Shown here: positions 99 to 26,875 of the stretch, piece by piece
Layout of the letters: every line of letters begins with the position of its first letter
Position numbering within the stretch: the stretch's first letter is position 1
Assembly: GCA_963823665.1 (NCBI GenBank)
Contig: CAWGMQ010000011.1
Span: 192,001 to 256,000 of the forward strand
Direction of reading: 5' to 3'
Source of the DNA: an uncultured Planctomycetota bacterium
Lineage (GTDB): Bacteria > Planctomycetota > Planctomycetia > Isosphaerales > Isosphaeraceae
Length of the DNA stretch: 64,000 nucleotides
The notes under the pieces: model-generated
Database searches by the model: none
Told to the model about the DNA's origin: nothing
The model's input: the letters and a program-made list of their open reading frames with translations, nothing else
Translations under genes and position numbers: made by a program

Positions 99-1252
99 GT
101 GTACATCCACCGCAGATCCGGTTGGCCCCGATTTCACTGGGACCAGATTGCCCTGGCCGACAAGCTTGCTGCGGTGCGGCACAGGCAGGGGCGGCTTGTC
201 GGCAGGATGGAGGCGCTCGGGTTTCGCCTTCGCGAGGAGGCGGTGCTCGCCACGCTCACGCAGGACGTGCTCAAGTCGAGCGAGATCGAGGGGGAGATTC
301 TGGACAGCGATCAGGTGCGGTCGTCGATCGGCGCCGGCTGGGGTTGGATCTCGGGGGGCTCACACCGGCCGACCGGTATGTCGAGGGCATCGTCGAGATG
401 ATGCTCGACGCGACTCAGAATTATCAAGAGCCACTGACGGTGGAACGGCTGTTCGGCTGGCATGCCGCGCTGTTTCCCACGGGGCGGAGTACCCTGCATC
501 GGATCCGGGTGGGCGCATGGCGGGATGATCGCACCGGCCCCATGCAGGTCGTCTCGGGGCCGATTGGCAGGCAGCGGGTGCACTTCGAGGCGCCTGCGGC
601 TGAGCGGCTGGACAAAGAAATGGGGTTGTTCCTTGACTGGTTCAACGGGCCGGTTGCAACCGACCAGGTTCTGTTTGCCGCTCAGGCCCATCTCTGGTTC
701 GTGACCATTCACGCGTTCGACGACGGCAACGGGCGGATTGCCCGCGGCATCGCCGATATGGCCCTGGCGCGCTCCGAGCAGAGCCCGAAGCGGTTTTACA
801 GCATGTCGGCGCAGATTCAGCTCGAGCGAAACGATTACTACAACATTTTGGAGCGGACACAGAAGGCCGGGCTCGAGGTCACGCCTTGGATGCACTGGTT
901 CCTGGACTGTCTGGACCGGGCGTTTCTGGGCGCGGAAACCACACTGGCGAGCGTGCTGCGGAAGGCCCGGTTCTGGGATGCACACGCTGGAGAGTCGTTC
1001 GACGAACGGCAGCGGAAGGTTTTGGGGCGGTTGCTCGATGGGTTCGAGCGGAAGCTCACGTCCACGAAATGGGCCGAGCTCGGCAGTTGTTCGCAGGACA
1101 CGGCCGGGCGCGATATTGCGGATCTGGTCGGGCGCGGCATTTTGAGGAAGGATTCGGCGGGTGGTCGGAGTACGAGCTATTCGTTGATCGAACCAGTCGG
1201 GGAGCTCGAGCGCTCGCGAGGTTGGAGATCGGGTGGGAAGCGCAGCGGGTGA
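99..1252 (+). CDS. Fic family protein with DUF4172-like N-terminus and C-terminal winged helix; one frameshift near 330
   Basis: YIHRRSGWPRFHWD...KSSEIEGE (ORF 81..401) joins the ORF 2..1252 frame; Fic motif HAFDDGNGRIAR; C-terminal GGRSTSY. Confidence 0.9.
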
Positions 1253-5611: not shown

Positions 5612-5794
5612 AACGCCCTCGCGAGCCAGTGCAGCAGCGCATGCCCTAACCCGCAATTGCACCACGACTTACTCGCTCATTCTCCCGCTCCCGCGGAGAC
5701 GCCTGCCCCCACTCCCGCCTTGCTGATCCGATTTCGCTCACCATAATTGAAAGAATACGCGCCCACGCCTGTGTATTACTGTTGGAGGAACCGC

Positions 5795-6403
5795 ATGACC
5801 GATTCGCCAGCGACCAGGCAGAGTCTTGTGGCTCGGTTGAAAAGCCCGCGGGACGAGCAGGCATGGGGGGAGTTCGTGGAAATCTACACTCCGCTCGTCA
5901 GCAGCCTGGCGCGCGCGAAGGGCTGGCAAGCGGCCGATTCCGCCGACCTGGCCCAGGAGGTGTTTCGATCGGTCGCAGAGGCCATCGACCGATACGACCC
6001 GGACCCCGCACGCGGCTCCTTCCGAAGCTGGCTGTTTCGAATCGCCCGCAACCTCATGATCAACCTGCTCGCGGCCCGTCGCCTCCGCCCCCAAGGCAGC
6101 GGCGACTCGAACGTCCGCGAGATGCTCGAATCGGTCCCCGCGCCCGAAGGTGCTGAAACCGCCCTGTTTGATGTCGAATACCGCCGCCGGATTTTCCTGT
6201 GGGCGACCGATCAGATTCGCGACGAATTCCGCCAGTCAACCTGGCAGGCATTCTGGCTCACCGCGGTCGAGGGGCAAGACCCCGCCACCGCGGCCAGGTC
6301 GTGCGGCATCTCGGTGGGGGCAGTCTACATCGCGCGCAGCCGCGTCATGGCCCGGTTGAGAACCGTGATCGAACAAGCTGAAGGCGAATCCCGTTACTCG
6401 TGA
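5795..6403 (+). CDS. ECF sigma-70 factor, kinase-associated planctomycete type
   Basis: TRQSLVARLK..AWGEFVEIY, DLAQEVF, GSFRSWLFRIARN, AVYIARSRVMARLR; GGAGG RBS. Confidence 0.92.
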   Translation: MTDSPATRQSLVARLKSPRDEQAWGEFVEIYTPLVSSLARAKGWQAADSADLAQEVFRSVAEAIDRYDPDPARGSFRSWLFRIARNLMINLLAARRLRPQGSGDSNVREMLESVPAPEGAETALFDVEYRRRIFLWATDQIRDEFRQSTWQAFWLTAVEGQDPATAARSCGISVGAVYIARSRVMARLRTVIEQAEGESRYS

Positions 6404-6437
6404 TCGATGGCACAGACGAAGTGTCCAGGAGAAATCC

Positions 6438-9400
6438 ATGCCCGCGCCCCAGAACCAAAACGAGTGCAAGCGCCATCGATTGCGCCTCTCCCTCGATGAC
6501 CGGCTCTCCCAAAGCGAGCAGGCCGAGCTGGCCGCTCACCTCGAAGCCTGCCCGGCCTGCCGCCGTGAGCTCGAGGGAATGGCGGCCGCCAGTCACTTCT
6601 GGGGCGATGCGGCGCTGCTCCGCGGCGAGCCTTGGGCCGCGAAGGCAGCCACTGGCGTTCATTCCGATCCGCTCGCGAATTTCGACGACGACGATCGGCC
6701 CGACGCCGCCGGTCTGGATGGCCGCTGGCTCGACTTCCTCGACCCGAGCGATCCGGAGCGCCCGGAAGCACTCGGGCGTCTCGGTCCGTACGACATCCTC
6801 GAGGTGCTCGGGCGCGGCGGCATGGGCATCGTGCTCAAAGGGCGTGACCCGGCGCTGGAGCGCACCGTCGCCATCAAGGTACTCGCCCCCACGCTCGCAC
6901 ACTCCGCCAGCGCACGCCGCCGCTTCGCGCGGGAAGCCCGCGCTGTTGCGGCCGTCGTGCACGAGCACATCATCGCGATTCACGCCGTCGACGAGTTTCA
7001 CGGCCTGCCTTATCTCGTCATGGAATACGTCTCCGGCCGCTCGGTCCAGGATAAGCTCGACGCGTCCGGTCCGCTCGAAATCCGCGAGATCCTCCGCATC
7101 GGCATGCAGGCTGCCCACGCGCTGGCTGCGGCACACGCGCAAGGGGTCGTCCATCGCGATATCAAGCCGGCCAACATCCTGCTCGAAAACTGCGTCGAGC
7201 GCGTCAAGCTCACCGATTTTGGGTTGGCTCGCGCGATCGACGACGCCAGCCTCACCCAGAGCGGTGTGATCGCCGGAACGCCGCAATACATGGCGCCGGA
7301 ACAGGCGCGCGGGGAGCCGGTCGACGCGCGAGCCGACCTCTTCGCACTGGGCGCAGCAATCTACGCCATGGCCTGCGGGCGCTCGCCGTTCCGGGCCGAC
7401 TCGGCGATGGCCGTGCTCAAACGCGTGTGCGACGTCCGCCATGCGTCAATCCGTGAGCTCAACCCGGACGTGCCCCCGTGGCTCGCCGCCATCGTCGATC
7501 GCCTGCTGGCGAAAGAACCGGCCGACCGCTTCCAGACCGCTGCGGAGGTTGCCGACCTGCTCGAAGGCGGACTCGCCCATCTTCAACAGCCGGAGAGCTT
7601 GCCGCCACCCGTCGTTGACGCGGCCGAAGCAATCCTCTCGAAGCCTGATGCATTCGATCTCGAGCTCGACCCGCCCGATCTGCCCCCGGCCCGCCGTCGC
7701 CTTCGCCCCCTGTCCATCGCCGCTGCACTCCTGCTGGTGGCCATTACCGGAATCGGCGTCACCGACGCCGCCGGCTTGACGCAGGTTTCCGACTTCGTCG
7801 CCACCATCCTTCGGATCAAGACAGCCGATGGTGCGCTGATCGTCAAGGTCGAGGACCCTGCGGTGAAAGTTCAAGTCGACGGCGATGAGATTGTCATTGG
7901 CGGCACGGGCCAGCAGGAAGTGCGGCTTCGACCCGGACGCCATCGCGTTCAAGCCACGCGAGACGGCCGGCCAGTCCGTGACGATTTCGTGACCATCAGC
8001 AGAGGTGGAAAGGAAATCGTCAACATCACATTCGAACCTGCAGTCGCGTTCCTTGCGCCGCCCGAAGCACCAAGTCCATACGTTGCGGGCGTAGGTGCGC
8101 TCCCGAGCCCCAATCCGTACGTTGCGCCGGTAGGTGCGCTCCCGAGCCCCAATCCGTATGCGATCGGATCGGCTGCTCCCGCCCCGACATCGGTTCCCGT
8201 ACCCGAGGGGTCAACTCTTCCGCCCGTCGCTCCAGCAGAGCGGGCAGGAACGCCGAGTTCTATCCCTATCACTCCGGCAGATCCATCCGACGCCCCGGTT
8301 CTTCAGCCCGGTGGTCCCGCGCCGGCGCACTCCCTGCCAGCTCCTGCATCCGGCGCGCCACCCGGTGAGCCCGCTCGGTCAGTGAATCCACCCGCGCCTT
8401 CCGCTCTTCCGCAGCCGACAGTTGCGCCTTCGCCCGCGGCGACGACGCCTTCGGCTTCCGGATCCAGTGACGTGCGGCTTCCATCGGTGGTTGCGAAGCG
8501 AGTGTCCACTTACGGCATGGTCTGTGCGCTGGAGTTCTCCCCCGACGGGCGCACGCTCGCGATCGGGCAGCAGTGCGTCGGTAAGCCGGAATCCATTGTG
8601 TCGATCTGGCAGGTTGCCGATCACGGTGCGGTGTTTTGTTTACATCATCCGTTTGGATTCGGAGGCCTGGCGTTTGCGCCCGACGGCCGTGGCCTGGCCA
8701 CGGGACTCAAGGACGGCACGGTCACGATCTTTGACGATATCCATGCGCGAACGATGGGCGAGAGCGAGAATCAGGGGTCGGCTGTGACGTGCGTGGTGTT
8801 TCTGGCGAAAAGCTCGCTGGTCGCTGCCGGGGACCGGAATGGATGGGTTCGATTCCACGGCCCGGCCGGTAAGACCAAGCTCCAACCCATCAGGTATCCG
8901 GGGGCGGTCTTGAGCCTGGCAAGCAGCCCCGATGGCTCGATGCTGGCGGTCGGGGGCGATGCCAAGGTCGTTCATATTTACGACCTGGTGAAGCAAGAGC
9001 TCAAGGCGATCCTGGAAGGGCACACGCGACCGATCGAGTCGCTCGACTTCTCTTCCGACGGGAAGCTGCTCGCCTCAGCCGGCGGGTCAACCGTGCGGTT
9101 GTGGGATACAACTACGTGGAAGAGTAAAGGAGAGCGCTTTCAACTTAATCCGCCAGCGCTTTGCGTTCGCTTTTCGCCGGATGCGAAGACGCTTGCGCTC
9201 TCGGACGGTGACAAGTATTTTCAGCACGAAAAGTCCGAGGCGACGGTGATTATCCTCTGGAATCTCGCCGCCGGCGCCGAAGTCTTGCGGCTGTCCGGTC
9301 ACAAGAACGCGATCTGCGCCCTGGCCTTCTCGCCCGACGGCCGAATTCTCGCCTCGGGAAGCACGGATCAAACTGTGAAGCTCTGGAGCACCCACACCGG

Positions 9401-9461
9401 CGAGCTTCGCGAAACGATCGGGCCCGCCGATACGAACACGTCCCGGCCTCGTGCCGAGTGA
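6438..9461 (+). CDS. Membrane Ser/Thr kinase with N-terminal zinc-finger (HxxxCxxC), TM helix, Pro-rich linker and C-terminal WD40 repeats
   Basis: HLEACPAC; GRGGMG, VAIK, HRDIKPAN, DFG, GTPQYMAPE; FSPDG/GH..WD repeats. Confidence 0.93.
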   Translation: MPAPQNQNECKRHRLRLSLDDRLSQSEQAELAAHLEACPACRRELEGMAAASHFWGDAALLRGEPWAAKAATGVHSDPLANFDDDDRPDAAGLDGRWLDFLDPSDPERPEALGRLGPYDILEVLGRGGMGIVLKGRDPALERTVAIKVLAPTLAHSASARRRFAREARAVAAVVHEHIIAIHAVDEFHGLPYLVMEYVSGRSVQDKLDASGPLEIREILRIGMQAAHALAAAHAQGVVHRDIKPANILLENCVERVKLTDFGLARAIDDASLTQSGVIAGTPQYMAPEQARGEPVDARADLFALGAAIYAMACGRSPFRADSAMAVLKRVCDVRHASIRELNPDVPPWLAAIVDRLLAKEPADRFQTAAEVADLLEGGLAHLQQPESLPPPVVDAAEAILSKPDAFDLELDPPDLPPARRRLRPLSIAAALLLVAITGIGVTDAAGLTQVSDFVATILRIKTADGALIVKVEDPAVKVQVDGDEIVIGGTGQQEVRLRPGRHRVQATRDGRPVRDDFVTISRGGKEIVNITFEPAVAFLAPPEAPSPYVAGVGALPSPNPYVAPVGALPSPNPYAIGSAAPAPTSVPVPEGSTLPPVAPAERAGTPSSIPITPADPSDAPVLQPGGPAPAHSLPAPASGAPPGEPARSVNPPAPSALPQPTVAPSPAATTPSASGSSDVRLPSVVAKRVSTYGMVCALEFSPDGRTLAIGQQCVGKPESIVSIWQVADHGAVFCLHHPFGFGGLAFAPDGRGLATGLKDGTVTIFDDIHARTMGESENQGSAVTCVVFLAKSSLVAAGDRNGWVRFHGPAGKTKLQPIRYPGAVLSLASSPDGSMLAVGGDAKVVHIYDLVKQELKAILEGHTRPIESLDFSSDGKLLASAGGSTVRLWDTTTWKSKGERFQLNPPALCVRFSPDAKTLALSDGDKYFQHEKSEATVIILWNLAAGAEVLRLSGHKNAICALAFSPDGRILASGSTDQTVKLWSTHTGELRETIGPADTNTSRPRAE
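8076..8160 (+). repeat. 39-bp in-frame tandem repeat (PSPNPYVAxVGAL)
   Basis: gtaggtgcgctcccgagccccaatccgta at 8091-8119 and 8130-8158. Confidence 0.85.
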
Positions 9462-9587: not shown

Positions 9588-12500
9588 TCAGTTCAGGCGG
9601 TCTGTCGCCTTCTTGTTCGACGTGGTCTTCGGATAGGTGTAGAAGAACCAGTCGCGACCGCTGCCGGCCTTCAGGGAGTTCGGGTAGCTGGAGTTGTAAA
9701 CCACCTTCAGCCGCTGGTTGACCAACGTCGTGGGGCTTGCGTTCCAGTCGTTCAGGATCTTCCGGAGCGAGTCGCCGGCGTTCACCACCGTCGCCGACCC
9801 GTCGATGAGGATGTTGTTGCCGTTGCCAAGCTGGATGGTGTGCCGCCCGAGGCCCCCCACGACCAGGTTGGCCCCGTTGCCGGCCTGGACGTTGTCGTTG
9901 CCGTTCCCCTCGACGATCACGTTGCTGCCATCGCCGAGCTGGGTGGTGTCGTTGCCATTGCCGACGGTCACGGTGTTGTTGCCGCCGCCGGCCCATATGC
10001 CGTCGTTGCCATTGCCCAGGCTCACGGTGTTCGACCCGCCGCCGAGCAGGACGTTGTCGTTGCCGTTGCCCAGCGCGATGCTGTTGGCGCCGCCGCCGGC
10101 CGCCACGCCATCGTTGCCATTGCCGGCGGTGACGACATTGTTGCCGCCGCCGAGAACGACGAGGTCGTTTCCGGCGCCTAGGCTGATCGTGTTGTTGCCG
10201 TTGCCCAGCGCGATGCCGACGTTCGCACCGGCGGCATCCGCGGCCGTGATCGTGTTGTTGCCGTTCCCGCCGATGACCAGGTCACTGCCGGTGCCGAGCA
10301 TCACGGTGTTGTTGCCGTTGCCGAGCTGGACCAGGTCGTAACCGTTGCCCGCAGTGATGGCGTTGTTGCCGTTGCCGAGCTGGATGCTGTCGTTGCCGTT
10401 CCCCACCGTCACGGTGTTGTTGCCGCTGCCGGCCTGGACGCTGTCACCACCGTTGCCCAGCGTCACTTTGTTATTGCCGTCACCGAGTTGGACGTTGTCG
10501 TTGCCGGCGCTGCCAGAGACAACCGCGCTCAGTGTCAAGGCGGGGTTGAAGTGCACATTATCATTGCCGTTTTGCAAGGTGATATCCACGGCGGAGAGGG
10601 CCTGGCTGTAATTCGTGGTGGTTGTGCCACCATTGAGCCGAGTTTGGACCTGGACGCCGGTGCTGCCGGTGTTGCTGCTGCCGATCGGGTTGATCTGGAC
10701 CTGGTCGTTGCTCGTGGCGCCATTGCTGCCGATGTACAGGGCCGTTCCCTCGACGCCGATGGACTGCATCACCTGATTCAGCGATGCGCTGCTGGCCGTG
10801 AAGTTGGAGCTTGGAATATAGACCGCCTGTACGCTATGGCTGGCTCCGGTCAGGAAACTGATTGCGGAGCTGAGAGCCTGGCCGCTGGTGTTCAGCGCGA
10901 CCGGCGACCCATAGTTGGCACCATCGACGATGAACTGTACGCTTCCCATCGTGACAGCTCCCGTCGTGCTGGTCACGGCCGCAGTGTAAGTGATCTGCTG
11001 CCCGTAGGCGGCCGGGCTCGCGGAGGATGTGACGCTCGTCTTGGTGGAAACCCCGGCGATCGTGAAGGCAACTGCACCACTGCTGCTGCCGGTATGGTTG
11101 GTATCGCCTGAGTAGGTTGCCGTCACCGTGAACGTGCCGGCGTTGGTGGGGGCGGTCGACGAGGCGGCGTATGTCGTCGAACCGGTGCCGACATAGCTGA
11201 AGGTGAAGTCGGCGAGGTTGGTGTTGTTCAAGCCGCCAGAACCCGTGGCGCTGGCTGCCGTCGCGGGGAAGGGACTGCCGTTGTGTGTGCCGCCAGCGTC
11301 GGTCACCGTGGTGATGGAACCGGCCTTGCTGATCGTAAACGGCGTCGCGAGGCTGCTGCTGCTCGCGTGGGTGGCATTACCCAGGTAGGTGGCAGTGACG
11401 ATGTACGTGCCGGCGTTGGTGGGGGCGGTCGACGAGGCGGCGTATGTCGTCGAACCGGTGCCGACATAGCTGAAGGTGAAATCGGCGAGGTTGGTGTCGT
11501 TCAAGCCGCCAGTCCCCGTGGCGCTGGCTGCGGTCGCGGGGAACGAGCTGCCGTTGTACACGCCGCCGGCATCGGTGACGGTGACGAGGGCCTCGGACTG
11601 ATAGGCGCCGATATCCGGACCGCTGGCCGGCCGAGGGAAGCCCCGTTGGTCCGTGGTGATGCCGTTAATCGACGCCCCCGCGCCGATTGCCGGGCTGCCG
11701 GAAAGAAGGGCCATGGTCGGGGTTGGGCCGCCATTGTTGCCCAGGGACGCCAGCAGCGGGTTGAGAGGCGTAGCCACGGTGCCGGTCAGGTCCGAGCTGA
11801 CCCAACCGCTGCTGCCGTCGGTGGCTCCGATGAGGTTGTTTCCCTGCGAGGTGACGGCGTTGCTGACATTGGGGCCGGAGCTTGCGGAGTTTCCTGCGAC
11901 GATGGAATCACCGATTGTCAGGGTGTATGCGTTGCCGCTGTTGTCGATAGCGCCGCCGCTCCCGCTGCCGCCGGTGCCGGCTTGATTCGCCGACAGCGTG
12001 CTGTCGAGCACGGTTACGGAACCCACATTTTCAATAGCGCCCCCGGAACCAGCGGCACTATTCGAAGCCAGCGTGCTGTTCACAACAGTCAGGCTGCCTG
12101 TGACCACGACAGCCCCGCCCAGGCCGGTGGTGGTATTGCCGCTAAGCGTGCTGCTCGTGATCGTCAGCGTGCCTTGGTCGACGATTGCTCCGCCGCTACT
12201 GGACTTCCCGTCAATGAGGCTCAGATCGGAAAGCGTGGCGGTGACGCCGGCTTTCACGTCGAACAGGCCGACGCTGATTCCGCCGCTGAGGATCACGCCT
12301 GCGGCGGGTCCGGTGATGATCGTCGTTCCGCTCGAGTCGCTGAGCGTCAGCGGGCTGTTCAGAGTGATGGTTTGCGACGTCGCGAAGACCGTCGGGTCAA
12401 AGGTGATGGCATGCGTGCCGGCACCAAGCGTGTTGGCGTAGGCGACCGCATCACGGAGGGTGTTGCCGGTGGAGACCATCACCGGTGCTATTGACGACCA

Positions 12501-15500
12501 TGCTGCCGCTGACGGTGACCGAGTTGGCGCTCGCGACGCTCGTGGCCGGGTTGTTGGCCGCGTCGCCACAGTAGGTGGCGACCCAGTAATCGGTGCCGAG
12601 CGACGCCGCGGTGGTGATGAAGCCTTTGGAGGTCGCGCTTCCGTTGATCAGTGGTTCCGTGTCGGTGAACAACGCCGGGGCGGTGGCGGTGGCGTTGTTG
12701 TAGAGGCTGAACGTCACGACGCCGGTCGGATTGTTGCCAGTGACCGTGACTTTGTCGGCGATGGATGAGCCGAGGGTTGCGGTTGCCGGTTGGGCGGCGG
12801 TGGTGATGGTCGGGTTCACCGGTCCTGGGGGGGTATAGATCGCAAAGCCCGTGACAGCGGCTCCGACTGCATAGTTGCCGCTCGCCGCGTATGAACCAAC
12901 GACAACGTACCTGCCCAGGGCGCTGGCGCACCGGAGAGCGGATTGGTGAAGTTCACGTCAGTGGCGGCAAAGTAGGTGAACGTCGGCGTGCCGAGATTCG
13001 CACCGCCCACTCCAGTGACGGTCCCGGTCGCCGGGAACGGGTTGCCGGTGACAGCACCGCCTGAGTCGGTGACGGTCACGGTCGGCATCGCCTGCGCAAC
13101 GTTGACTGTCACGCTTGACGTGGCGGTCGTGTAATCGGCTGCGTCTAAGGGCGTGAATGTGACGGCTACGCTCTGGCCGTTGCCAGCGTTCAGCAAATTG
13201 CCGGCGGCGCTGGTGTAAGCAAAGGTGCCAGGGACGGCAATCGTGCTTCCTCCAAGTGTGTACGAGGCGGTGCCGCTGAGCTGAGTGCTCACCAGGGCCG
13301 TGCCGTAGGTGATACTCACCGCGTTCAAGCTGGTTACTGTCGGCGTTGCCTGCGAGACGCTGACGGACGCATTCGAGGACGCCGTGGTGTAGTCCTCCGT
13401 ATCGAGAGGCGTGAACGTGACGGCCTCACTCTGTCCGCTGCCTGCATCGGGCACGCTGCCGGTGGCGCTCGTGTAGCTAAACGTACCGGGAACGCTCACC
13501 GTGCTTCCGTTGACCACGTAACTCGCGCTACCGTCAAGTTGGATGCTTGCCAGCGCGGTGCCGTAGGGGATGTTGACGGCGCTCACGCTCGTCACCGTTG
13601 GCGTGGCCTGGGCGACGTTGACGGTGACGGTCAACGACACCGGCGCGTAATTCGCCGTATCGTCGGGCGTGAAGATGACCGCTTCACTTTGCCCAGTGCC
13701 TGCATTGAGCACAAGGCCCGCGGCAGTGGTGTAGGCGAAGCTGCCGGGGATGGTCGTGGGAGTGCCGCCGATGGGATACGTCGCGGTCCCGCTGATCTGG
13801 CCGTTGGCCAGGGCGGTGCCGTAGGTGATGTTGACCGGGTTCAGGGAAACGGTGGACGCAACCGGCGAGCTCTGGGCGACGTTCACGGTCACCGACGTAT
13901 CCACTGTCTCAAAGTCCGTGGTGTCGTTCGGTGTGAACGTGACGTTTTCAATTTGTCCATTTCCAGCATTGAGCACAACGCCGGCATTGGTGGTGTATGT
14001 GAAGGTGCCCTGGACGGCTACCGTGCTTCCGTTGACGGTGCTTGTCGCGGTGCCGGCAAGCTGATTGTTATCCAGCTCGGTGCCGGGGATGAGGTTGACT
14101 GGGTTCACCGTCACTATCGGCTCGACCTGGGCGACGTTCACGGTCACAGTCGAGGATATCTCCGCGTAATCGGTTGGGTCGGCGGGAATGAAGGTGACCG
14201 GTTCGGTCTGCCCATTGCCCGCGTGCGGCACGCTGCCGGCGCCATTGGTATAAACGAGCGTGCCCGGCAGCGTGTTTTCGCCATCGGTGATCGTTCCGCT
14301 CAACTGGCTGTCGGCCAGGGCCGTGCCGTAAGTGAGGTTGACGGAGGACAGGCTCACGATCACGGGCGTGACCTTGGCAACGTTCACGACCACGGTTGAC
14401 GATTCCGGCGCGTAAGCCATGAGGTTAGAGGGCGTGAAGGTGACCGCTTCGGTCTGCCCCGAGCCCGCGTGCAAGCTAGTCCCTGCGGCGCTGGTAAACG
14501 TGAAGCTGCCGGGGATGCTGACCAGGGTGCTGCCCACGGTCGCCAACGCGACACCCTGGAGCTGCAAGTTGCTCAGCGGGGTGCCATAGGTGATGTTGAT
14601 CGGGTCGACCAGCAACGGCGCCAACGTGGTGATCGTAATTCCGGACGTGTCAAGATAGACCGGAGTGGTGTCGGTGGAAGTTGTTGTCGTTCCGGGCCCA
14701 CTATCGGATGCGACCAGATCAGTCTCCGTCACCGTGCGACTGGCCGCAGCCACGAAGCCCTGGTAGCCGTTGGTGTCGACGACAACCGGCCCAGCAACGA
14801 CCAGATCATTGGTAACGACAGGCAAATCTGACTGTAAGATGATGACGTTCCCCGTCGGCCCGCTCAGGTTGGGCGCAAACGCGATGTTATGCAAACCGGG
14901 CTCCGAGTTGGCCAGCAGGATCGCATCTCGCAGAGTGCCGGCGGCGCCTGGAGCATCGGAGTCTGACGTCACGATGATCGGCGGGTTGTTTTCGTTGATG
15001 ATTGCATTGATGAGCGTTTCATCAACGGTCGTGCCATCACCCAGGTTTGCCGTGGTATCTCCGTTCTCTACCACGGTGGGATCATCCATCCCCACGATGC
15101 CCGTGGTGCGCGAGACTTTCACCCCGGTAAAGTATTGCTGCGCGATCCCATCCACGGTGTCGCCCAGCCCGACCGGCACCGCCGACGTCGAATAAACAGT
15201 TGAACCATTGACCATGTCCGGTACAAAGTCCTGGTTCAGATTGTTTCGGTACAGCGTGCTGGGATTGCCCAGGTCCGTTGGGATCAATCCATTGTCGTTA
15301 GCCCCGTTGTCATTCTCCGCATAGTTCCATCGCGTATTGGGGTCGGTGATGGTGTGCGAATTCTGATCCACTTCGGCCGGTTGCCAGCCAGGTGTGAGCC
15401 CCGTTTGGGGATCGGCGGCGGGAGTCCAGCTCTGGTCGGCATTGGGAACAAATACAATTTTTCCCCGAACTTCGCCCAATGTGGGAGTGATAGCCGGGTT

Positions 15501-18500
15501 AGAAGAGTAGTAGACGAAATCCTTGTAGTTGGTGCCCGGAACTGCCGTGTCAGGCGAGTCGAGCAGCGTGTTGAGGTCGGTGTTGAAGCTATTGGAACTG
15601 TTCACCGGGGTGGCGTCGTTGCTCAAGGAAACCACGATGGTTTCCGTGGGCTCGGACTGCAGGAACGAGGTCATCTCGTTCAGCGCGCCTTGCATGGTGT
15701 AGCCGGTAAAATCCTGGCCGGCGTTGAGGTTGATGGTGTCGTTGACCAGACCCGCTTGCAAATCCAGCGAGCGAACCCCCGTATCGAGCTGGTCGGCGAT
15801 GCTCAGCGTTTGCGTTTGCTCCGTGGTCTCATGGTTTTGCAGCGTCGTCAGTTCGGCCGTGAAATTAACATCCGCGGTCGCCGCCAAAAAGCCTGCCGCA
15901 TCTGCGGCCTTGGCCGCGTTGGCGGCCAGGCCATCGGCTTTCTCTGCCGCTGCATTTGCAAGGTCCGCGGCGGTGTCTACTTTTGTTTCAGTTAAGTTGG
16001 CCGCAGCCGCCGACTGATCCGCTGTAGTTGCGTCGGCATTGGCCGTAACTGCCGTGGCATCCGCATCCGCCGCCATTTCGTCAGCGGTAACGGCCAACCC
16101 ATCTTCGCCCGCCGCCGTCTCATCCAGAGGCGTCGCCGCTGCATCGATGCCAGCCGAAACGCCGTCGGTGGCGACGTCCGTGACATCGGCGCCAAGCGAG
16201 ACTTCATCCAGGGCAACCGCCACGGCTTCGCCGACCGCGGCGGCCGCAGCCGTGCCAATATCCACAAAGATGATTTCGGCCGTGGCCGCGGCAATGGCAT
16301 CCAAGGCAATTGCAGCGATGTCCGCGGCCCCCGCCGCAGTATCCGCGGCCGCCGTGACGCCATTGTCGGTCGCCGCCGCAATATCCGCGCCGTCGGCTGC
16401 TGAATCGGCCCCCAGCGCCGCTGAATTCTCGGGAGTTGCCGCCTCATCCAACGCAGCCGCCTTCTCATCCAACAAAGTCGCCTCCGCGTCATCGGCCGCG
16501 GCTGTTGAGTTGGCCTCTTCCGCCGCCGTGTCCATGGCGGTCGCTTCCGTCGCCGCGCTGGCCTCGGCCTGATCCGCAGCCGCAGCCACGCTATCCAAGA
16601 CGGCTGCATTGCTGGCCAAGACGCCCTCCGCCGTGAGCGCCGTCGCCGCCGCCGCATGCGTGCTGGCCTCCGTCAAGGCAAGCCCATAGACCGTATTCTG
16701 GTCCGTAACGTTGTTGCTGTTGTTGCCCGTCGTGTTGGGGGTGCTCATCCCAGCGGCGAACGTGCCATAAAAACTTGCCGCCAGCGCATTCGCAGCCGCC
16801 CCGGTAAAAGCCGCAGTCGCTGCGAGCGCGTTCGTTACCGCCGACGTCGTACGTTTGGCGGCGTCCGCGGCATAGTCAGTCGTCGCTGCCGAGTTGGCGG
16901 TTGCCGCGGCCGGATCGGACCCATTGGCCGCCAGACCCGCCCCGGACGCCGTTGCATTGACGCCCCCAACCGCGTTATCCAGGCCACTGGCAGGCCCATT
17001 GGTGGCATCGGCCGCCGCGTCGGCGGCGTCCGCCGCAGTATCTCCGCTGACCGCGGCCGCATCCGCCGCCGCTGCGGTTCCATCGAGTCCGGCTGCGATC
17101 TCATCCGCGACCGGATCAATTCCATCCTCCGCCCCCGCCACGACATCGGCGGTGGCCGCGGAAGCGTCGGTCGTCGCAGCGGTTGCGTCCTCTCCCCCGG
17201 CGATCCCGTCCGTAAGCCCCGCCGCGGCATCCGTGCCCGCTGCCGCCGTGTCTGCGCCACCCGCCTCTCCATCCGCAGTCCCCGCGGCCGAATCGGCACC
17301 AGCGGCCGTTTCGTGATCGGTTGCCGCCGTCGTATCAGCCGCTTGGGCTGCGGGATCGTCGAGGGCCGCCGCTTTATCGGCCGCCTGGGCTGCGCTGCTC
17401 GCTGTTGAGGCAGCAAGAGACGCGCTGTCCGACGCCACAGCGGCGATGTCTGCTGTCAGACCGACGGCCAAACCGGCCCCCGTGCTGGTCTGCGTGATTC
17501 CCGCGGTAGCGTCCGCTGAAAACGCCAGACCGTCCGCGACGACCGCCTGCGCATTCAACGGCACGCTCGGCGGATCGGCAGCCAGCGCGGCTGCCACCGC
17601 GGCAGAATCCGCTAGATGCAATGCCAGCGCTGAGTTATTCACGCCGACGGCCGTCACCGTCGTTGGGGCGAGCACGGTCGACGACCCGCTGCCGATCAAT
17701 GCATCCGACAAGCTCGGGCCCGCCGCCGAGTTGACCGTGCCCGGCAGGGAGACATCCGTCAGTGGAACGCCGTCGGGTTCCGCGGCCATCCAGTCGCCCG
17801 GACCGCTGATGACAACCACCGGATCCGACCCGCTGTTGCTGGTGGCTGCGACGTTGTTGCTGTCGCCGCTGTAGGTGGCTACCCAGTAATAGGTGCCGGG
17901 GTTTGTGGGGCTGGCGTACCCCGATGTGGCAACGCCGCCCGACACCGTTTCGGGGGGGTTGGTAATATACAAGGGCGTGCCGCTGGCGTTGGGGTTGTCG
18001 TAGAGACTGAACGTGACGGTGCCGCTGGGATTGAAGCCGGTGACGGTGGCTTTATCGTCAATTCCCAGGCCGACCTCCCCAATAGCGTTAACGGCCGTGG
18101 TGGTAATGGAGGCAGGGTAGGGCTTGACAACCACCGGGTCGGCCCCGCTGATGCTCGTCGCGGTGCCGTTATCGGGGTCGCCGTTGTAGGTGGCAACCCA
18201 GTAATCGGTGCCGGCATTCAAGGTGCTGTAGTTCTTTGCTGTGGCAACGCCGCCGGAGAGAGTTTCGGTATCCGTGTACAAGGGCGTGCCGGTGGCGGTT
18301 GCGTTGGCGTAAAGGTTGAACGTGACGGTGCCGGTGGGGTTGAGACCCGTGACGGTCACTTTGTCCGCAATGGGGGTGCCGACTATCGCGCTGGGCGGCT
18401 GGGCCACGGTGGCAACGCCCGGCAGGTAGGCAATGTTCACCATGCCGTTGCCGGTTTCGGTGACCTGGGCGGTGGTACTGGCGACTGAGGGGTCGAAGTA

Positions 18501-19397
18501 CGACCCGCCGCCGCCCCCCTGATTTAGTGCATCTGACCCAGCCCCGCCACCGCCCCCCGAATAACCGCCACCGCCGCCGCCGCCGCCGTAACTAGCATCC
18601 TCCCCGCCGCCGCCACCACCGCCGAAGCCGCCACTGCCGATGCCGCCACCGTCGATGATGACCACGTTGGTGCTGGCCCCATCGCCGCCACGAAAGGACG
18701 GTGCGCCAGAGCCCGAGCTCCCGGCTCCCACCGGGGGAAATTCAGGTCCTCCTCCACCTGAGAACCACCCGCCCCCACCGCCACCCTCGCCGGTTCCCTC
18801 GGGGTCGCCGCCGCCGGGAAAGCCGCCCGAGCCGTCGACCCCGCCCTGTCCAAAAGAGTAGAAGGGATTGGCTACAGCCTCTGCATCGGCACCCCCGTTT
18901 ACTCCGGTCTGCGCGTTGCCACCGGTGCCACCGGCACCGCCGCCGCCACCACCGGCAGCGATCAAAGGTTGGCTTGCGGGTTGGCCGTCACTGGTTTGGA
19001 ACACAAAGCTGCCGCCGCCCCCTCCTCCACTCAACAGGCCCAAACTACCTTGGCCGCCTACCAAAACGTCCAGCGTCGTTCCCGCAGTCAGCAGGACATT
19101 GCCGCTCAGCACGGCGCCCAGGCCGCCTGGAGCGCCGACATATCCCTCGCCTGGTACATATGCGTCGGGGCTGCTGCTGCCTCCCTGCGCCCCATCCACT
19201 GTGATCTCATAAACCCCCGTCCGAGGCACGGTATAGGTCTGGATCGCTCCGGTGTAGGCGAAGCCCGTCAGCATCAGCCGCGGCTCCATCGCCTCGATCG
19301 CAACCCTCGCGGCTTGTTGTCGACGACGGCTGGACTTCGGCCGACCCTGCGACCCACCAACGACTTTGCGGCGACGATTGAATGGAAGTGGCTTCAA
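9588..19397 (-). CDS. Giant (~3,270 aa) secreted multidomain protein: planctomycete signal, Gly-rich domain, Ig-like repeats, split PI-PLC-like domain, MBG/Ig-like repeats, beta-helix with DQRG..DIGAY motif, RTX-like GNGND repeats; frameshifts near 12920 and 12470
   Basis: ORFs 12816..19574, 12451..12819 and 9588..12569 continue one another; TTG start with GGAG RBS; EAMEPRLML motif; ITYGT..QLSGTA repeats; C-terminal GSGRDWFF. Confidence 0.88.
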
Positions 19398-19778
19398 CGG
19401 AGGTTGCTCCCTGGTGAGTATCGTGGGATGCGGAACAGGGTTCAGGCAAAGGGGGTCGCGGCCCCGCGACGCCGGATCGGGTGGGCGATCGTCTCGCCTC
19501 GGCGCGCGCAGGTCTGCTCTTCCTCGGCCAGCCGCTCGGTGATCAGGAGACCGCTCTAAACAGCGCTCTCGCACACCGGCGACAATCCAAGATCACCGTG
19601 CGGGCCGAAAACCCTTCACCGCCGCACGATGGTTTTTTTCAACGCCCGCGGCCTGTCCGCTCCGCACCTCACTGTTCTAGGCCGACACCGGTTTGGAATC
19701 GCATCGGCGTTGTGCTAGACTCGGTCCCGGTCTAAGCCCGGCCTGACCACAGACTTCCAGGGCGGAGGGGACGCGTAG

Positions 19779-20381
19779 GTGAGCGATGGGGAGGGTTCCG
19801 TCTCACGTTGGGTCAGGGGTCTGAAGGCCGGCGATCCCGAGGCCGCCAGGCAGATCTGGCAGCGCTACTTCGTCGACCTGGTGAGGCTCGCCCGGCCACG
19901 GCTTCGCGAGATCTCCCGCGCCCCGGCCGACGAGGAAGACGTCGCCTTGAGCGCCTTCGACAGCCTCTGCCGCGGCGCGGGCGAGGGGCGATTTCCCAGG
20001 CTCGAGGATCGCAACGACCTCTGGCGGGTCCTGGTCACGATAACCGCGTGCAAGGCCGCCAACCAGGTCCGGCACCAGACGCGGCTCAAGCGGGGCGGCG
20101 GTCAGGTCGTGGCCGAGGCCGACCTCGCCGCCAGCGCCCTGGCGGCCGGCGGGCTGGCCCAGGCCCCCGCGGCCGAGCCGAGCCCCGAGCTGGCGGCCCT
20201 CCTCGCCGAGCAGTGCCGCCGCCTCTTCGACCTGCTCCCCGACGAGCCGCTCCGCCAGGTTGCGGCGCTCAAGCTGGAGGGATACACCGACCGCGAGGTC
20301 GCCGCGCGGCTTTGCTGCGGCCTGAGCACCGTCGAGCGGCGGCTCAGGACCGTCCGCACCTGCTGGGCGGCGTGGGGTTGA
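19779..20381 (+). CDS. ECF sigma factor, kinase-associated, divergent from the giant gene
   Basis: GSVSRWVRGLKAGD..AARQIWQRYF, DEEDVALSAFDS, DLWRVLVTIT, LEGYT..STVERRL. Confidence 0.92.
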   Translation: MSDGEGSVSRWVRGLKAGDPEAARQIWQRYFVDLVRLARPRLREISRAPADEEDVALSAFDSLCRGAGEGRFPRLEDRNDLWRVLVTITACKAANQVRHQTRLKRGGGQVVAEADLAASALAAGGLAQAPAAEPSPELAALLAEQCRRLFDLLPDEPLRQVAALKLEGYTDREVAARLCCGLSTVERRLRTVRTCWAAWG

Positions 20382-20409
20382 GACTCGATTCACGGCATGG
20401 GAGCGAATC

Positions 20410-23400
20410 ATGAGCGCCGGCGACCGCCCGGATGATGACTATTCCCTGGGTGCAATACGGATGGTGGAGATCGACCGGGCGTGCCACCGCTTCGAGGCCG
20501 ACTGGCGCGCTGGCCGCCGGCCGGCCATCGAGGACTGCCTGGCCGGCACCGCCGGACCGGACCGCGCGGCCCTGCTCCGGGAGCTGCTGGCGGTGGAGCT
20601 GGAGTACCGCGCCTCGGCCGGAGAGCGACCCGACCCGGCGGAGTATCGCGCCCGGTTCCCGGTCGAAACCGGGCTGGTCGATGCCGCCCTGGCTCGGATG
20701 GAGGTCCCGTCGACCGAGGCCGTCGGCAGTGCGGCCGACGACGGCCGCCGCTTCCGCGCCCTGCGGCCCCACGCCCAGGGCGGGCTGGGTGCCGTCTTTG
20801 TCGCCCTGGATCGCGAGCTGAACCGGGAAGTCGCCCTCAAGCAGATCCTCGATCACCACGCCGACGACCTGGTCAGCCGCAAGCGGTTCCTCGTCGAGGC
20901 CGAGATAACAGGGCGACTCGAGCACCCCGGCATCGTGCCCGTGTATAGCCTGGGCACGTACGGCGACGGCCGGCCGTACTACGCCACGCGGTTCGTGCAT
21001 GGGGAAAGCCTGAAGGAGGCGATCGAGCGCTTCCACACCGATCCGGCCCTGAAGAACGGCCCCGGCCGCCGCTCGCTGGAGCTGCGCAAGCTGCTCCGCC
21101 GGTTCGTTGATGTCTGCAACACCATCGAGTACGCCCACTCCCGCGGCGTGCTGCACCGGGACATCAAGCCGGCCAACGTGATGGTGGGCAAGTACGGCGA
21201 GACCCTGGTCGTCGACTGGGGGCTGGCCAAGCCGATGAAGAGCACCGAGCCCGGCAGCGGCTCGGGCGAGCAGGCGCTCTTGCCGTCCTCGGCCAGCGGC
21301 TCGGCCGAGACGCTGCCTGGATCGGCCGTGGGAACCCCCGCGTACATGAGCCCCGAGCAGGCCGCCGGCGACCTGGAGCGGCTCGGCCCGCAGGCGGACG
21401 TCTACGCGCTCGGCGCCACCCTGTATTGCCTACTGACCGGCAAGCCGCCGTTCGAGGGGGAGGCCGCCGCGGTGCTCCCCAAGGTACGGACGGGCGACTT
21501 CCCACCGCCGCGGCAGCGTGACCCGGCGCTCGACCCGGCGCTGGAAGCCGTCTGCCTGAAGGCGATGGCGGTGCCGCCGGAGGAGCGCTATCCGACGAGC
21601 CGGGCGCTGGCCGACGACATCGAGCGGTGGATGGCCGACGAGCCGGTGTCGAGCTGGCGCGAGCCGTTCAGCCGGCGGGCGCGGCGATGGGCCAGCCGCC
21701 ACCGGACCTGGGTGGCCGCAGCGGCGGTGGGGCTGGTCGCGGGGGTGGTCGGGCTGGCCGCCGTACTGGCGGTGCAGACCAAGGCCAACGCCGAAATGGG
21801 CCGCTCCCGGGCCGCCGTGCAGGCGCGGTACGACCTGGCCTTCATGGCGATCAAGACGTTCCACACCGGGGTGAGCAAGGATTTCCTGCTCCAGCAGGAC
21901 CAGTTCAAGGAGCTGCGCGACCGGCTTCTGACGTCGGCGGCGGACTTCTACGGCAAGCTGTCGGCGATGCTTGGCAAGGAGACCGACCCCGCCTCGCGGC
22001 AGGCGCTGGCGCGTTCGAAATTCGAGCTGGCGGTGCTGACCAGCAGCGTCGGCCGCAAGCAGGACGCCCTGGCGGCGCACCAGGCCGTACTGGCGGCGCG
22101 GGAGGCTCTGGCGGCCGAGCCGGGGGCGGGCGCCGCGGCGACGGTCGAGGTCGGCCAGAGCCTCACCGAGGTCGCCACGCTGCTCCAGGCGACCGGCAAG
22201 CGGGACGACGCGGTGGCGGCATACCGCCGATCCGAGTCTCTGCTGGCGGGCCGAACGGAGACGGACCCCGCGGCGCGGGCAGCGCTGGCGGCCAGCCGGT
22301 CGAGGCTGGGCCTCCTCCTGCAGAACGCGGGCATGACCGCCGACGCGGTGCCCGTTTACCGGCGAGCGCGGGCCGACCGGGAAGTGCTCGCAAACGCCCC
22401 CGGGGCCTTGAACGACGCCCGCAGCGACCTTGCGGAGACGGTCATGTTCATCGGCCGCCTGCTCTACGGAGACCGACAAGTTGCCGGAGGCGGAGGCCGA
22501 GACCCGCGTCGCACTGGCGATCATGGAGAGCGTCGTCGCCGAGAATCCCGCCAGCATTGAGTTCCGCGGACTACTGGCGGCCATCCACAACAATCTCGGC
22601 CTCGTGCTGCTCGCGTCGGGCAATCTGTCCGGGGCGGAGGTCGCGCACCGCAAGGCGCTCGCGATCCGGGAGAAGTTGGTCGCCAACCACCCTGCCGTCA
22701 CGAACTTTCGCAACAAAGTCGCGATCAGCGAGAACAACCTCGGCAACGTGTTTGCGACGAGCCGACCGGCGGAGGCGGAGGCCCCGTACCGCAGGGCGCT
22801 GGCGATCTGGGAACGGCTGGCCGACGACCACCCCACCGTCACCGACTTTCGCACCGGCCGGGCCCTCGTCCACCACAACCTCGGGTCCATGCTGTTTGAT
22901 ACGAGCCGGCTGGCGGAGGCGGAAGCCGAGTACCGCAAGGCGCTGGCGATCTGGGAACGGCTGGCCGACGACCACCCCACCGCCATCAACTTCCGCGACA
23001 GCGTGTCGGACATCCACTTCAGACTCGGCAACGTGCTATCTGCGGCGAGCCGGCCGACGGAGGCGGAGGCTTCGTACCGCAAGGCACTGGCGATCCTGGA
23101 AAAGCTGACCACCGAAGCCCCCGCCGTCGCCCCGTACCGCGACAGACTGGAAGACAGCCACGACGCCCTCGGCCGCCTGCTGTCTGCGACGGGCCGGCTG
23201 CCGGACGCGGAAGCCCAGTTCCGCCAGGCGCTGATGATCTATCAGAAGTGGGCCGGCGACCATCCGGAGGTCCCGGCGGATCCAAGCCGATGCGCGAATT
23301 ACGCCAGTCACCTCTCGATCGTACGTCGCTGGCTGGGCCGCCCGATCAAGGCCCGCGACGACTTCCGGCTGCTAATGCTCGACCTGGCCATGCCCGCCGA

Positions 23401-23422
23401 CCCGTTCGCCCCGGCACGCTGA
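20410..23422 (+). CDS. Ser/Thr kinase with TM helix and TPR repeats; frameshift near 22465
   Basis: IDRACHRFEADW N-terminus; HRDIKPAN, DWG, GTPAYMSPEQ; 144-bp TPR duplications; C-terminal DLAMPADPFA. Confidence 0.9.
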
Positions 23423-23942: not shown

Positions 23943-26875
23943 TCACTGCTTCCCCGGCGTTTTGTTCTTGCCGCTCGGATACTTCGCCCGCTCGGCCCGC
24001 CACTTCTTCGCCTCCGCCGGGTTGTTGATCGCGGTGTCGATCTCGATGAGCCGGTCGAGTGCTTCGGGGATGCGCAACTCTCAGCCACTGAATTGCGGGA
24101 TGGTCTTCTCACGGGTCTTCATCCCTTCGTAGCCGCTTTTGAGCAGCAGCTTGGCCTCGGAGTACTTCTTCTGACCGAGTAGCGCCCCGCCCAGCAGAGA
24201 CTGGGTGTTGAACGTCTTCCAGTCATTCGGTGCGGTGCGTTGCCGGGTGACCAGGCACTGACCCAAGAGCCCGGTCGTGAATGCCACGATTGCATCATTC
24301 GGATCCCGGTCATTCATTCCCTTCAGAACCTCCACAAGTGCCAGCTCCGCGTCGTCGAGCCGGCCAGTTGATATGTACATCTGAGCCACGTCTCGGCGTG
24401 CGAGAAGGGTGTCGATGTGGTTCGGCCCTCGCTCGGCCAGTTTAGCCCGGTACCGACTCTCCGTTGTCTGCATGGCGCGCAACACGTCGAGGTATTTCTT
24501 CGCTCGCAGCGTTTCGGGGTGGTTCGGGCCGAGCCTGGCTGTCCGCTTCTCGAGCGTCTCTTCGAACAACGGCGCGGCCTTGGCGAGCTGGCCGCTGCTC
24601 CCGTACGCCACGGCCAAGTTGCCCAGGCTCATCAGCGTGTCGGGGTGGTCGGGGCCGAGCCTGGATTTCCGCTTCACGAGCGTCTCTTCGAGCAACGGCA
24701 CGGCCTTGGCGGGCTGGCCGCTGGCAACGTACGCCGCAGCCAGGTTATTCACGTTGGCGAGTGTGTTGGGATCGTCGGGACCGACGCTGGCTTTCCACTT
24801 GGCCAGCGCCGCTTCGTACAGCGGCACGGCCTTCTCGAGCTGGCCGCTGCCATGGTACGCCATGGCAAGGTTGTGCAAGGTCTTGAACGTGTCGGGGTGG
24901 TCGGGGCCGAGCTTGATTTTCTGCATCACCAGCGTCTCCTCGAGCATTGGCACGGCCTTGGCGGGGTGGCCGCTGGCATGGTACGCGAGCGCCAGGTTGT
25001 TCATGATCTTAAGCGTGTCGGGGTGGTCGGGGCCGATCCTGGCTTTCATCTTCTCGAGCGTTTCTTCGTACCGCGACACAGCCTCGGCAAGTTGGCCGCC
25101 CGCCCGGTAGGCCTCAGCAAGGTTGCCCATGCCGGCGAGCGTCGTGGCGTGGTCGGGGCCGAGCTCACCCTTCAAAATAGTCAGGGCCTTCTCGAAGCGC
25201 TCGACCGCCAGGGACGTGTCGCCCAATCCCAGAAGCGCCAGGCCCAACCTGCTCTGCATCGCGGCGACGTCCAGCCGCTCGCCGACGTCCGATCTCTCCA
25301 GATCCTTCGCGGCCTTGCTCAGATTGTCGCGTAGTGCGTTGCGCAGCTCGGCCACGGTGGCGTAGTTCGCGCTCGGGTTCAAGCCCTCGAACACCGAGCC
25401 GAGGATCTCGTTCCCCTTTTTTGCGAAGGCCAGGTTCCGCTCGGCCTCCTGCCGCTTCGTGTCCGCCTCGAGCTTCGCCTTGCGTCCCGCTTGCATCAGC
25501 TCGCCCAGTTGCTGGTTCTGTGCCTTGACCGTGGCCTGCTGCGCGGCCAGCTCGACGTTCTTCGCCGCCAGGCCGGTATTCGCCCGCTTCGTCTGCCCTT
25601 CGGCGTCGATCGCCCGGAACATCTGCCAGAGGCTGGCGCTTGAGCCCGCCAACAACACCACGGCAATGGCGCCGCCCGCCACCTGGACCGTCCGGCGACG
25701 CTTCCGCTGTTCGGCCTCGCGGACCAGAGACTCGGCCCGTTCGGTCTCGGCCTGCTTCAGCCGTGCTTCGACGCCCGTCCGATAGGCCACGAGCTCTGCG
25801 GCAACGGCTTGCCCGTCCGCGGGGCGATCAGTGGGGGCCGGGCTCAGGCAGCGCCGGCACAAGGCCAAAAGCTCCACGTCCGCACCGCAGCCGTCCAGCC
25901 GCACATTCGCCTCGGCCAGGTCCGCCGCGGCAGCACGCCGAATCAGCTCCACGTTCGTCTCGCCGACAAAGGGCGGCTGCCCGGTCAGGATCGCGCAGAG
26001 GATGCCGCCGAGCGCAAAACGTCCGCGCGGGCGGCAGTCGGTTCGCCTCGCGCTTGCTCCGGGGCCATGTACGCCGGCGTGCCCAGCACCGTTCCCGCTT
26101 GCGTTTGCTCTTCCGTCGATTCCCCGAGAGCGCCGTAATCGATGGTTTCGTTCGCGTCAGTCTGGAAGGGTGAACGACGAGGGATGCAGGATGAGGAAGA
26201 TTGCTCGCCGGCTTGTTTCTCATCCGTCACTCCTCCTCCTTCATCGTGTTGCAATTCCTTGGCCAGCCCCCAGTCCATGACCTGCACCTCGCCAAACTCA
26301 CCCACCATGACGTTGCTTGGCTTCAAATCGCGGTGGATGACGCCGCGGCTGTGGGCGAAGCCGACAGCCTGGCACACTTGCAAGAACGCCTGCAACAGCC
26401 GCGGCCGGTCCGCGATCTTCATCTCCTGGGCCGGGGTTTGCCCCGCGATGAGCTTCATGGCCAGGAAGGGAGAGCCATCGGCAAGCGTCCCCAGCGCGTA
26501 CACCGGCGGGATGCCCGGATGTGGCAACCTCGCGGTGATCTTCGATTCGCGCACGAAGCGTTCGCTGCTGGCGCGAGGCAGCAGCAGCTTGATGGCCACG
26601 TCCCGCTCGAGGGTGAGGTCATACGCCGCCAGCACCCGGCCCATGCCGCCGCGAGCGATTTCGCCCCGCACCCGGTAGCCGGGCACTGTCGGCAAGTCGC
26701 CCTCCTCATCAACACCCCCGGGCACAGATGAGCCGGCGATGGCATCCAGACAAGACTGATTGCTCGTGGCCGCGCCAGCGGCATGCTCGGTGGTGGGAAG
26801 CGAGTCGGCCATTTCGCGGAATTCCGCGGTCGCCGGCGCACGATCAGTCGTCACATTCGGATCAGGCTCTTTCAT
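23943..26875 (-). CDS. Ser/Thr kinase with TM helix and kinesin-light-chain-type TPR repeats; frameshifts near 26010 and 24080
   Basis: ARGGMG, HRDLKPSN, DWG, GTPAYMAPEQ; 42-aa LGPDHPDTL repeats; C-terminus EAKKWRAERAKY in another frame ending at 23943. Confidence 0.88.

Follow-up and report, generated by a model that had tools for sequence, protein, structure and literature searches.

A PI-PLC-type barrel interrupted by a predicted helical stalk in a giant planctomycete protein

The giant gene and its split barrel

Inspection of 64,000 nucleotides of DNA from an uncultured planctomycete of the Isosphaeraceae (assembly GCA_963823665.1, contig CAWGMQ010000011.1, positions 192,001 to 256,000; this whole stretch is here called the window) led to a reverse-strand gene for a giant protein in which a barrel of the bacterial-type phospholipase C that is specific for phosphatidylinositol (PI-PLC) is interrupted by a long insertion. 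The initial annotation, made from the letters alone, had placed an insertion of about 640 amino acids just after the first active-site strand. This holds: the insertion measures 637 amino acids and lies in one frame with both barrel pieces, each matched by a profile and in the right order. All motifs quoted in that annotation fall in a single open reading frame (12816..19574, reverse strand, 2252 amino acids), with WMAAEPDG at residue 595 (position 17792) and PGTVNS at residues 611-616 in the first piece, and TQTLSIADQL at residue 1254 (15815) and LINAIINEN at residue 1521 (15014) in the second. Numbered by the residues of this frame, the gene is laid out as follows.

9588..19574, reverse strand: whole gene, about 3,250-3,330 amino acids when read through two one-base frameshifts; start codon uncertain
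19266..19322, reverse strand: planctomycete export-type motif RRR...IEAMEPRLMLT, residues 85-103 (motif read-out)
17805..19265, reverse strand: Gly-rich domain and two probable immunoglobulin (Ig)-like repeats upstream of the barrel, residues 104-590 (sequence; likeness to a repeat farther downstream)
17715..17801, reverse strand: N-terminal piece of the PI-PLC barrel with strand 1, residues 592-620 (profile, alignment A3, and a predicted local distance difference test score, pLDDT, of 83-92 in the structure model)
17478..17714, reverse strand: start of the insert with predicted short cap helices, residues 621-699 (model helices 30-36, 40-43, 49-74 and 80-99)
16746..17477, reverse strand: predicted helical hairpin 1, residues 700-943, with one arm 116 and the other 123 residues long (model; tip EDGIDP at 17112-17129)
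16719..16745, reverse strand: predicted hinge between the hairpins, residues 944-952, running into a GNNSNN motif (model, conservation)
15819..16718, reverse strand: predicted helical hairpin 2, residues 953-1252, arms of 146 and 147 residues (model; hydrophobic tip AEIIFVDI at 16257-16280)
14982..15818, reverse strand: remaining PI-PLC barrel, residues 1253-1531 (Pfam, phmmer, profile, alignment and structural match)
12924..14981, reverse strand: conserved post-barrel domain and tandem repeats of about 90 amino acids, probably Ig-like (sequence; kept in the family consensus)
9588..12923, reverse strand: C-terminal part past the frameshifts, carrying RTX repeats as well as domains of the Big_3_5 and MBG-like types (Pfam on 9591-12569)

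The Pfam PI-PLC-X family matches residues 1243-1332 with 23.7 bits, against a cut-off of 23.1, and phmmer matched the Listeria PI-PLC at an E value of 1e-10. A profile built from 90 intact relatives was searched against the unjoined window protein and aligned in two segments that keep their order, positions 7-34 on residues 593-620 (10.1 bits) and positions 36-286 on residues 1247-1536 (130.6 bits). A profile of the N-terminal motif alone scored 16.8 bits at residues 594-613, whereas the best score among 200 shuffles was 1.6. Two AlphaFold models were calculated. Model 1, from 11 family rows, has a mean pLDDT of 53, with hairpin 2 and part of the barrel folded. Model 2 was obtained from the 65 rows of alignment A3, which holds the window protein, 17 long-insert relatives and 47 short-loop relatives; it has a pLDDT of 81.7 and a predicted template modelling score (pTM) of 0.61, with the hairpin arms mostly at 80-93. 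Residues 1-940 of model 2 superimpose on residues 8-303 of Staphylococcus aureus PI-PLC (Z 30.9, 2.1 Å over 268 residues), and PI-PLCs head both the Foldseek and the wide structure searches with the model. The profile search and this superposition bear out the proposal that the two halves match and fold as one PI-PLC barrel, and in the model the pieces rebuild a complete TIM-type barrel.

The predicted barrel is the same as that of the bacterial PI-PLCs (PF00388) from Bacillus cereus/thuringiensis (1PTD), Listeria (2PLC) and S. aureus (3V18), with Z scores of about 29-31 at 2.0-2.4 Å, the same motif order and a retained Asp274. Unlike these enzymes, the window protein lacks His32, Asp33, Arg69, His82 and pocket residues, has a predicted double hairpin of 637 amino acids in place of helix B, and is embedded in a host protein of about 3,300 amino acids. 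By sequence we regard it as a homolog of bacterial PI-PLC and do not class it as an active enzyme, because it fails the tests on catalytic residues. Eukaryotic PLCs offer two parallels: PLC-gamma carries a large X-Y linker insertion within its barrel, and the PRIP/PLCL proteins are catalytically dead PLCs in other roles. The PLC-gamma insertion, however, lies between the X and Y halves rather than after strand 1 and has no coiled-coil stalk, and eukaryotic PLCs match model 2 only with Z scores around 14.

Active site and relatives

Alignment A3 places Val614 (17733-17735) at the position of His32, Asn615 at Asp33, Gln1273 (15756-15758) at Arg69 and Ala1285 (15720-15722) at His82, so the three catalytic substitutions read from the letters in the initial annotation are confirmed. 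Lys115 is replaced by Ser1318, and Asp274 is kept as Asp1497. The available text of PMC9572076 names His32, Asp33, Arg69, His82 and Asp274 as catalytic. The 47 short-loop rows keep His32 and Arg69 in 46 cases each and His82 in all. A QD.Y motif, with Asp in 43 and Tyr in 38 of these 47 rows, reads QNSH in the window protein (Asn1405, His1407), and two sites after the RGKIV motif that are most often Arg elsewhere are Pro1377-Asn1378; we take the Asp and Tyr to be Asp198 and Tyr200 and the Arg to be Arg163. His1407, the single histidine of the window barrel, is present in only 9 of 18 family rows. The exchange of His32 for Val is not a read error, because the relatives P0152 and P0153 carry the same Val-for-His32 motif and a contig of another run (X1) covers 17725-17894 with zero differences. 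Both catalysis and the inositol pocket thus look dismantled, and lipid binding by the barrel is doubtful because the pocket appears to have gone as well.

A search of representatives gave 434 matches at E ≤ 0.001 and 16 at 1e-30, and the homolog search gave 24. The long-insert proteins tallied here number 24 including the window protein, all with both halves present; one-half matches (for example P0002, P0005, P0006, P0157 and P0162) and L006, which the pattern did not parse, were excluded, although the latter shows the same residue losses by eye. Their inserts span 190-849 amino acids, with 14 of the 24 at 633-659. The initial annotation had proposed comparing histidine loss with the insertion among homologs, and the two do go together: His82 is lost in all 24 and His32 in 21. 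Loss of Arg69 is no family trait, since 14 of the 24 retain it. The His32 site is occupied by Tyr (9 rows), Val (7), Ser (3), His (3) or Thr (2), and the three members with 190-residue inserts retain both His32 and Arg69. Among 128 more distant matches, the 94 that could be parsed all have His32 and Arg69 and a median loop of 12 amino acids.

These data bear on two readings in which the barrel itself would be the working part. The initial annotation considered a pseudoenzyme kept as a lipid- or glycan-binding or scaffold domain. Its pseudoenzyme, split-barrel and scaffold elements are supported. Binding of a lipid headgroup or glycan in the old pocket, with the insert as an accessory, is quite improbable in our view: conservation of the barrel is strong, some columns being invariant in a family-specific way, and Asp274 in most members and Arg69 in the 14 mentioned are retained, but the window protein combines Lys115 to Ser, Arg163 to Pro/Asn, Asp198 to Asn and Tyr200 to His (163, 198 and 200 numbered as assumed above) with the losses of His32, Arg69 and His82, the His32 site varies freely across the family, and the predicted stalk emerges at the pocket rim. 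The second reading, an enzyme with altered chemistry, has been suggested for the bacterial-type PI-PLCs of Ceratocystis (Cer-PLCs), which in the accessible part of bioRxiv 10.64898/2026.07.28.741319 share with the window protein substitutions of Arg69, Lys115 and often His82, and of which those without Arg69 and His82 are proposed to be still active. Unlike the window protein they are fungal, mostly keep His32 and Asp274, and are described in that part of the text with no mention of a stalk insertion. Whereas the three members with 190-residue inserts would fit such chemistry, the Cer-PLC proposal depends on a kept His32 and the window barrel has only the poorly conserved His1407, which makes this reading very unlikely here.

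The genome of the window also encodes an intact paralog (on contig C8; L005:5325-10352, reverse strand, a frame of 1676 amino acids) with all catalytic residues, a 42-residue loop at helix B, and RTX repeats. Trees were built on the part of the barrel that follows the insert. In a quick tree of 73 rows the 24 long-insert proteins group with P0030 (loop of 70 amino acids), P0101 (85) and the C8 paralog with 96 support in the Shimodaira-Hasegawa-like approximate likelihood ratio test (SH-aLRT), P0129 (45) falling elsewhere; in a careful tree of 27 rows they form one clade (support 98/98) with intact enzymes as sisters. These intact planctomycete-type PI-PLCs are nearest in both trees and have their loop enlarged at the same site, but keep His32, Asp33, Arg69 and His82 and lack the heptad stalk. 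A stepwise order of insert growth from 190 over 350 to 640 amino acids was not established (approximately unbiased (AU) test, p 0.34).

The protein family is rare. A close match was found in one of 120 other genomes of the window's family, in addition to a weak one, and 400 genomes of the phylum gave one weak match. Two genome matches are metagenome-assembled genomes of Planctomycetales and Gemmataceae, the N-terminal translation of the former being the same as that of the match in G468, a genome of the window's family. A plasmid search returned only ordinary PI-PLCs at less than 60% identity.

The insert and its possible role

The insertion site lies between the third residue after His32 and the TQ motif, corresponding to about residues 36-49 of the Bacillus enzyme. 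In that enzyme helix B (39-46) and Trp47 penetrate membranes, according to the available text of PMC9572076, and judged by the alignment the insert takes the place of this membrane-docking helix. Against the 637 amino acids of the window protein, the 94 intact relatives have a 10th-90th percentile range of 10-18 for the same loop. The insert contains 226 Ala (35%), 73 Thr, 66 Asp and 50 Gly. Model 2 shows short cap helices, hairpin 1, the hinge and hairpin 2, both hairpins being antiparallel and Ala-rich with a heptad pattern and an Asp stripe; at 1.5 Å per residue the predicted hairpins would be about 17 and 22 nm long. They probably pack side by side as a single bundle of 17-22 nm, because alignments with designed helical bundles span both of them (8gl3, Z 16.3, 189 of 189 residues, 2.6 Å, range 179..579; 8tn1, Z 13.4, 146 of 147, 2.2 Å, range 109..646).

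The hairpins are also supported without any model. About 47% of the insert's Asp residues recur at i+7, i+14 and i+21, and there are 31 Asp(i,i+7) pairs, where 1000 shuffles gave 6.6 on average and never more than 14. The periodicity of the insert is dominated by 3.5 and 7, and Ala occupies the face opposite Asp with frequencies of 0.49-0.77 at three heptad positions when 19 inserts are pooled. A Thr period of 11 residues, of the ice-binding type, was rejected, being absent from the insert's top periods. The arm lengths of hairpin 2 co-vary among relatives (96/101, 103/111, 144/151, 145/153 and 180/185). Identity to eight relatives of similar length is 0.63 in both tips and 0.64-0.67 in the barrel, as compared to 0.35-0.41 in the arms; at non-Ala positions it is 0.60-0.62 in the tips and 0.23-0.37 in the arms. 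Hydropathy over 19 residues peaks at 2.11, in a segment whose end is at the tip of hairpin 2. This tip occurs in two interchangeable types, GLDPV and IPFVD (P0011, P0015 and P0163 versus P0155, P0156 and P0164).

Searches with the insert alone gave no Pfam (E ≤ 10) or NCBIfam match and, among PDB sequences, chance matches only (E ≥ 0.5). Protein searches with the insert region (top 8000 candidates each) returned only members or fragments of the barrel family, 3 and 8 matches, with a low-complexity query that leaves a stand-alone hairpin elsewhere possible. No second copy was found in its own genome, and the ESM Atlas gave no usable match for the window insert or the 190-residue insert of P0013, from which neither novelty nor absence follows. 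A complex prediction with three copies of hairpin 2 scored 0.00 with an uncertain fold. The insert is probably the working part of the protein; going by the model, the initial annotation overlooked these ordered heptad hairpins at the helix-B position as the probable main functional part.

We tentatively favor a reading in which the barrel acts structurally, as the socket of a stalk that makes contact with membranes or surfaces, within an exported protein of about 3,300 amino acids. The ancestor would have been a planctomycete PI-PLC, still active, in which helix B was already enlarged to an amphipathic loop of 42-85 amino acids. Heptad repetition would have expanded this loop into two antiparallel helical hairpins, probably packed as one 17-22 nm bundle on the active-site face. 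The residues for catalysis and inositol binding would have decayed, with the barrel retained as a socket gripping both stalk ends. The hydrophobic hairpin tip would then most likely contact or insert into a lipid membrane or other hydrophobic surface some 20 nm away, as an adhesin or tether.

Several points weigh against the socket-and-stalk reading. In model 1 the N-terminal piece is undocked (pLDDT about 30) and hairpin 1 is unfolded, and the reassembly of the barrel may lean on the 47 short-loop rows and the known fold. The packing of the bundle was taken from alignment ranges, not coordinates, at a pTM of 0.61. Hydropathy peaks reach only 1.2-1.8 in six relatives, no tip motif was recognized in P0003 or P0154, the net charge of the insert is -85, and both tips contain acidic residues. 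The strong conservation of the barrel could instead be due to a new site for a ligand. Grouping all 21 rows without His32 was neither rejected nor supported (AU p 0.34), and the careful tree does not settle the sequence of insert growth and residue loss within the clade.

The charge is what a polyanionic spacer or cation-binding rod would have, serving in surface exclusion, anti-fouling or binding of Ca2+ or other metal, with the tips as mere turns. The strict Asp stripe and the wide range of insert lengths across the family would suit it, and the best match to model 1 was the enterococcal PrgA (Z 16.8, 7.4 Å over 303), a 40-nm surface-exclusion stalk (6Z9L). PrgA drops to Z 11.1 on the better model 2, however, and the tips are as conserved as the barrel, at non-Ala sites too, so this reading seems distinctly unlikely. 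Together with the Streptomyces umbrella toxin UmbC (8W20), an exported head-and-stalk protein according to the text available from PMC11062931, PrgA has in common with the window protein, as modeled, a globular head with a long coiled-coil stalk in a protein that is exported, a likeness of shape only. Here no CAP domain, no ALF repeats and no toxin at the C-terminus were found, and the stalk appears to grow from a dead enzyme. Homology to UmbC (Foldseek E 1.7e-6) was rejected (TM 0.12, root mean square deviation 70 Å).

The hairpins could also be a membrane-piercing or pore-forming device like the TcA channel hairpin or alpha-pore-forming toxins, acting on neighboring microbes, whose Asp stripe would be protonated at low pH so that the tip could insert. 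Descent from a membrane-attacking enzyme is in keeping with this, and the present models have a long hairpin, its tip hydrophobic and conserved, that recalls at a generic level the hydrophobic-tipped helical hairpin of the TcA and ClyA-type proteins; TcdA1, AhlB, MakA, colicin Ia and ClyA are among the fold matches. These matches are weak and generic, with Foldseek E values of 0.1 or worse and Z scores of about 10-11, in lists that also contain BAR domains, chemoreceptors and SMC proteins. In the models, the toxin-like matches (TcdA1, AhlB, ClyA, UmbC) do not rise above the background level of long helices and helical bundles. The insert has neither a sequence match to the TcA or ClyA proteins nor, as noted, any family match, and no variable toxin at the C-terminus with an immunity gene beside it was found: the C-terminus is Ig-like/RTX and the adjacent gene is a convergent kinase, with no immunity-like open reading frame next to the giant gene. 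We consider such a device unlikely. Its more specific form, a pH-gated membrane-piercing needle, 20-45 nm long, that sits on the dead barrel and derives from heptad expansion of the docking helix, is unlikely as well; if true, planctomycetes would have evolved a device for pore formation or membrane penetration independently, and living intermediates would show its origin, with loops of 42-85 amino acids in active enzymes, 190 in half-dead and 350-850 in dead ones.

The initial annotation knew of no such protein, and our literature search, with subscription papers and supplements outside its scope, likewise turned up no description of a PI-PLC barrel with a helix-B stalk; the available text of PMC3482391 does not mention 'PI-PLC'. 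The architecture is real, conserved and apparently undescribed, with graded relatives. A pseudoenzyme usually retains its pocket when the chemistry is lost, whereas in this family the pocket looks abandoned and what was a peripheral helix for membrane binding seems to have become a long stalk. With the graded series and an intact paralog in the same genome, one can test directly how an enzyme turns into a scaffold and how a long coiled coil arises. The family, though small, also opens a way to study the giant proteins that planctomycetes export, which are largely unexplained.

Gene integrity, export and neighboring genes

The motif IEAMEPRLMLT resembles, by pattern, the LExR-type planctomycete cell-surface signal, for which a consensus is given in the available text of PMC8567305. 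Similar motifs occur in 15 of the 24 long-insert rows, and Pfam PF07595 does not match the window protein. Together with the extracellular repeat domains found by Pfam (Big_3_5 and RTX), this suggests that the giant protein is exported or surface-located.

The two one-base frameshifts lie near 12923 and 12471, in the C-terminal part of the gene, and tblastn with the unbroken relatives P0152 (3040 amino acids) and P0153 (3180) spans three window frames. Both are probably assembly errors, because a 240-nucleotide contig of run X1 and a 185-nucleotide contig of run X4 (depth 2-5) are identical to the window except for a one-base indel at the frameshift places; the second indel was seen in run X3 as well. 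Further window genes are apparently split (20410-22560 with 22430-23422, and 25985-26875 with 24081-25952), and this too points to indel errors in the assembly. Decay of the gene, combined with a neutral expansion of low complexity, would account for the frameshifts and for the patchy spread, with one close match in 120 other family genomes. This reading is largely refuted and scarcely tenable, in view of the indels in near-identical contigs of other runs, the unbroken relatives, and an insert length held at 633-659 in most members despite an arm identity of about 40%.

The barrel-stalk module is shuffled among differing flanking domains (PKD, Big, beta-helix, RTX). A Pfam scan of residues 104-590 gave no family match, and the names Gly-rich and Ig-like used for this region are probable assignments; its N-terminal Gly-rich domain (18420-19265, reverse strand) recurs in P0008, P0152 and P0153. 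A choice-of-anchor Q domain is additionally present in P0153, and the family member P0163 has Phage_BR0599-like repeats after the barrel, at residues ~2298-2343.

One feature outside the gene was listed as a possible regulator, from layout only.

19779..20381, forward strand: divergent sigma factor of the extracytoplasmic function (ECF) type, followed by a Ser/Thr kinase at 20410-22560

Pairs of an ECF sigma factor and a Ser/Thr kinase lie on both flanks of the giant gene (5747-9461 and 19779-22560, both forward), the upstream pair being divergent. L009 and the C8 paralog likewise have kinase genes upstream that point away, but such pairs are common in the window genome. Genes for glycosyltransferases with tetratricopeptide repeats and a GT41 domain (OGT/SPINDLY-like) lie near the family member L006 (L006:10415-12613, forward strand) and near the C8 paralog (L005:2490-4883); these GT41 enzymes might glycosylate the Ser/Thr-rich giant proteins.

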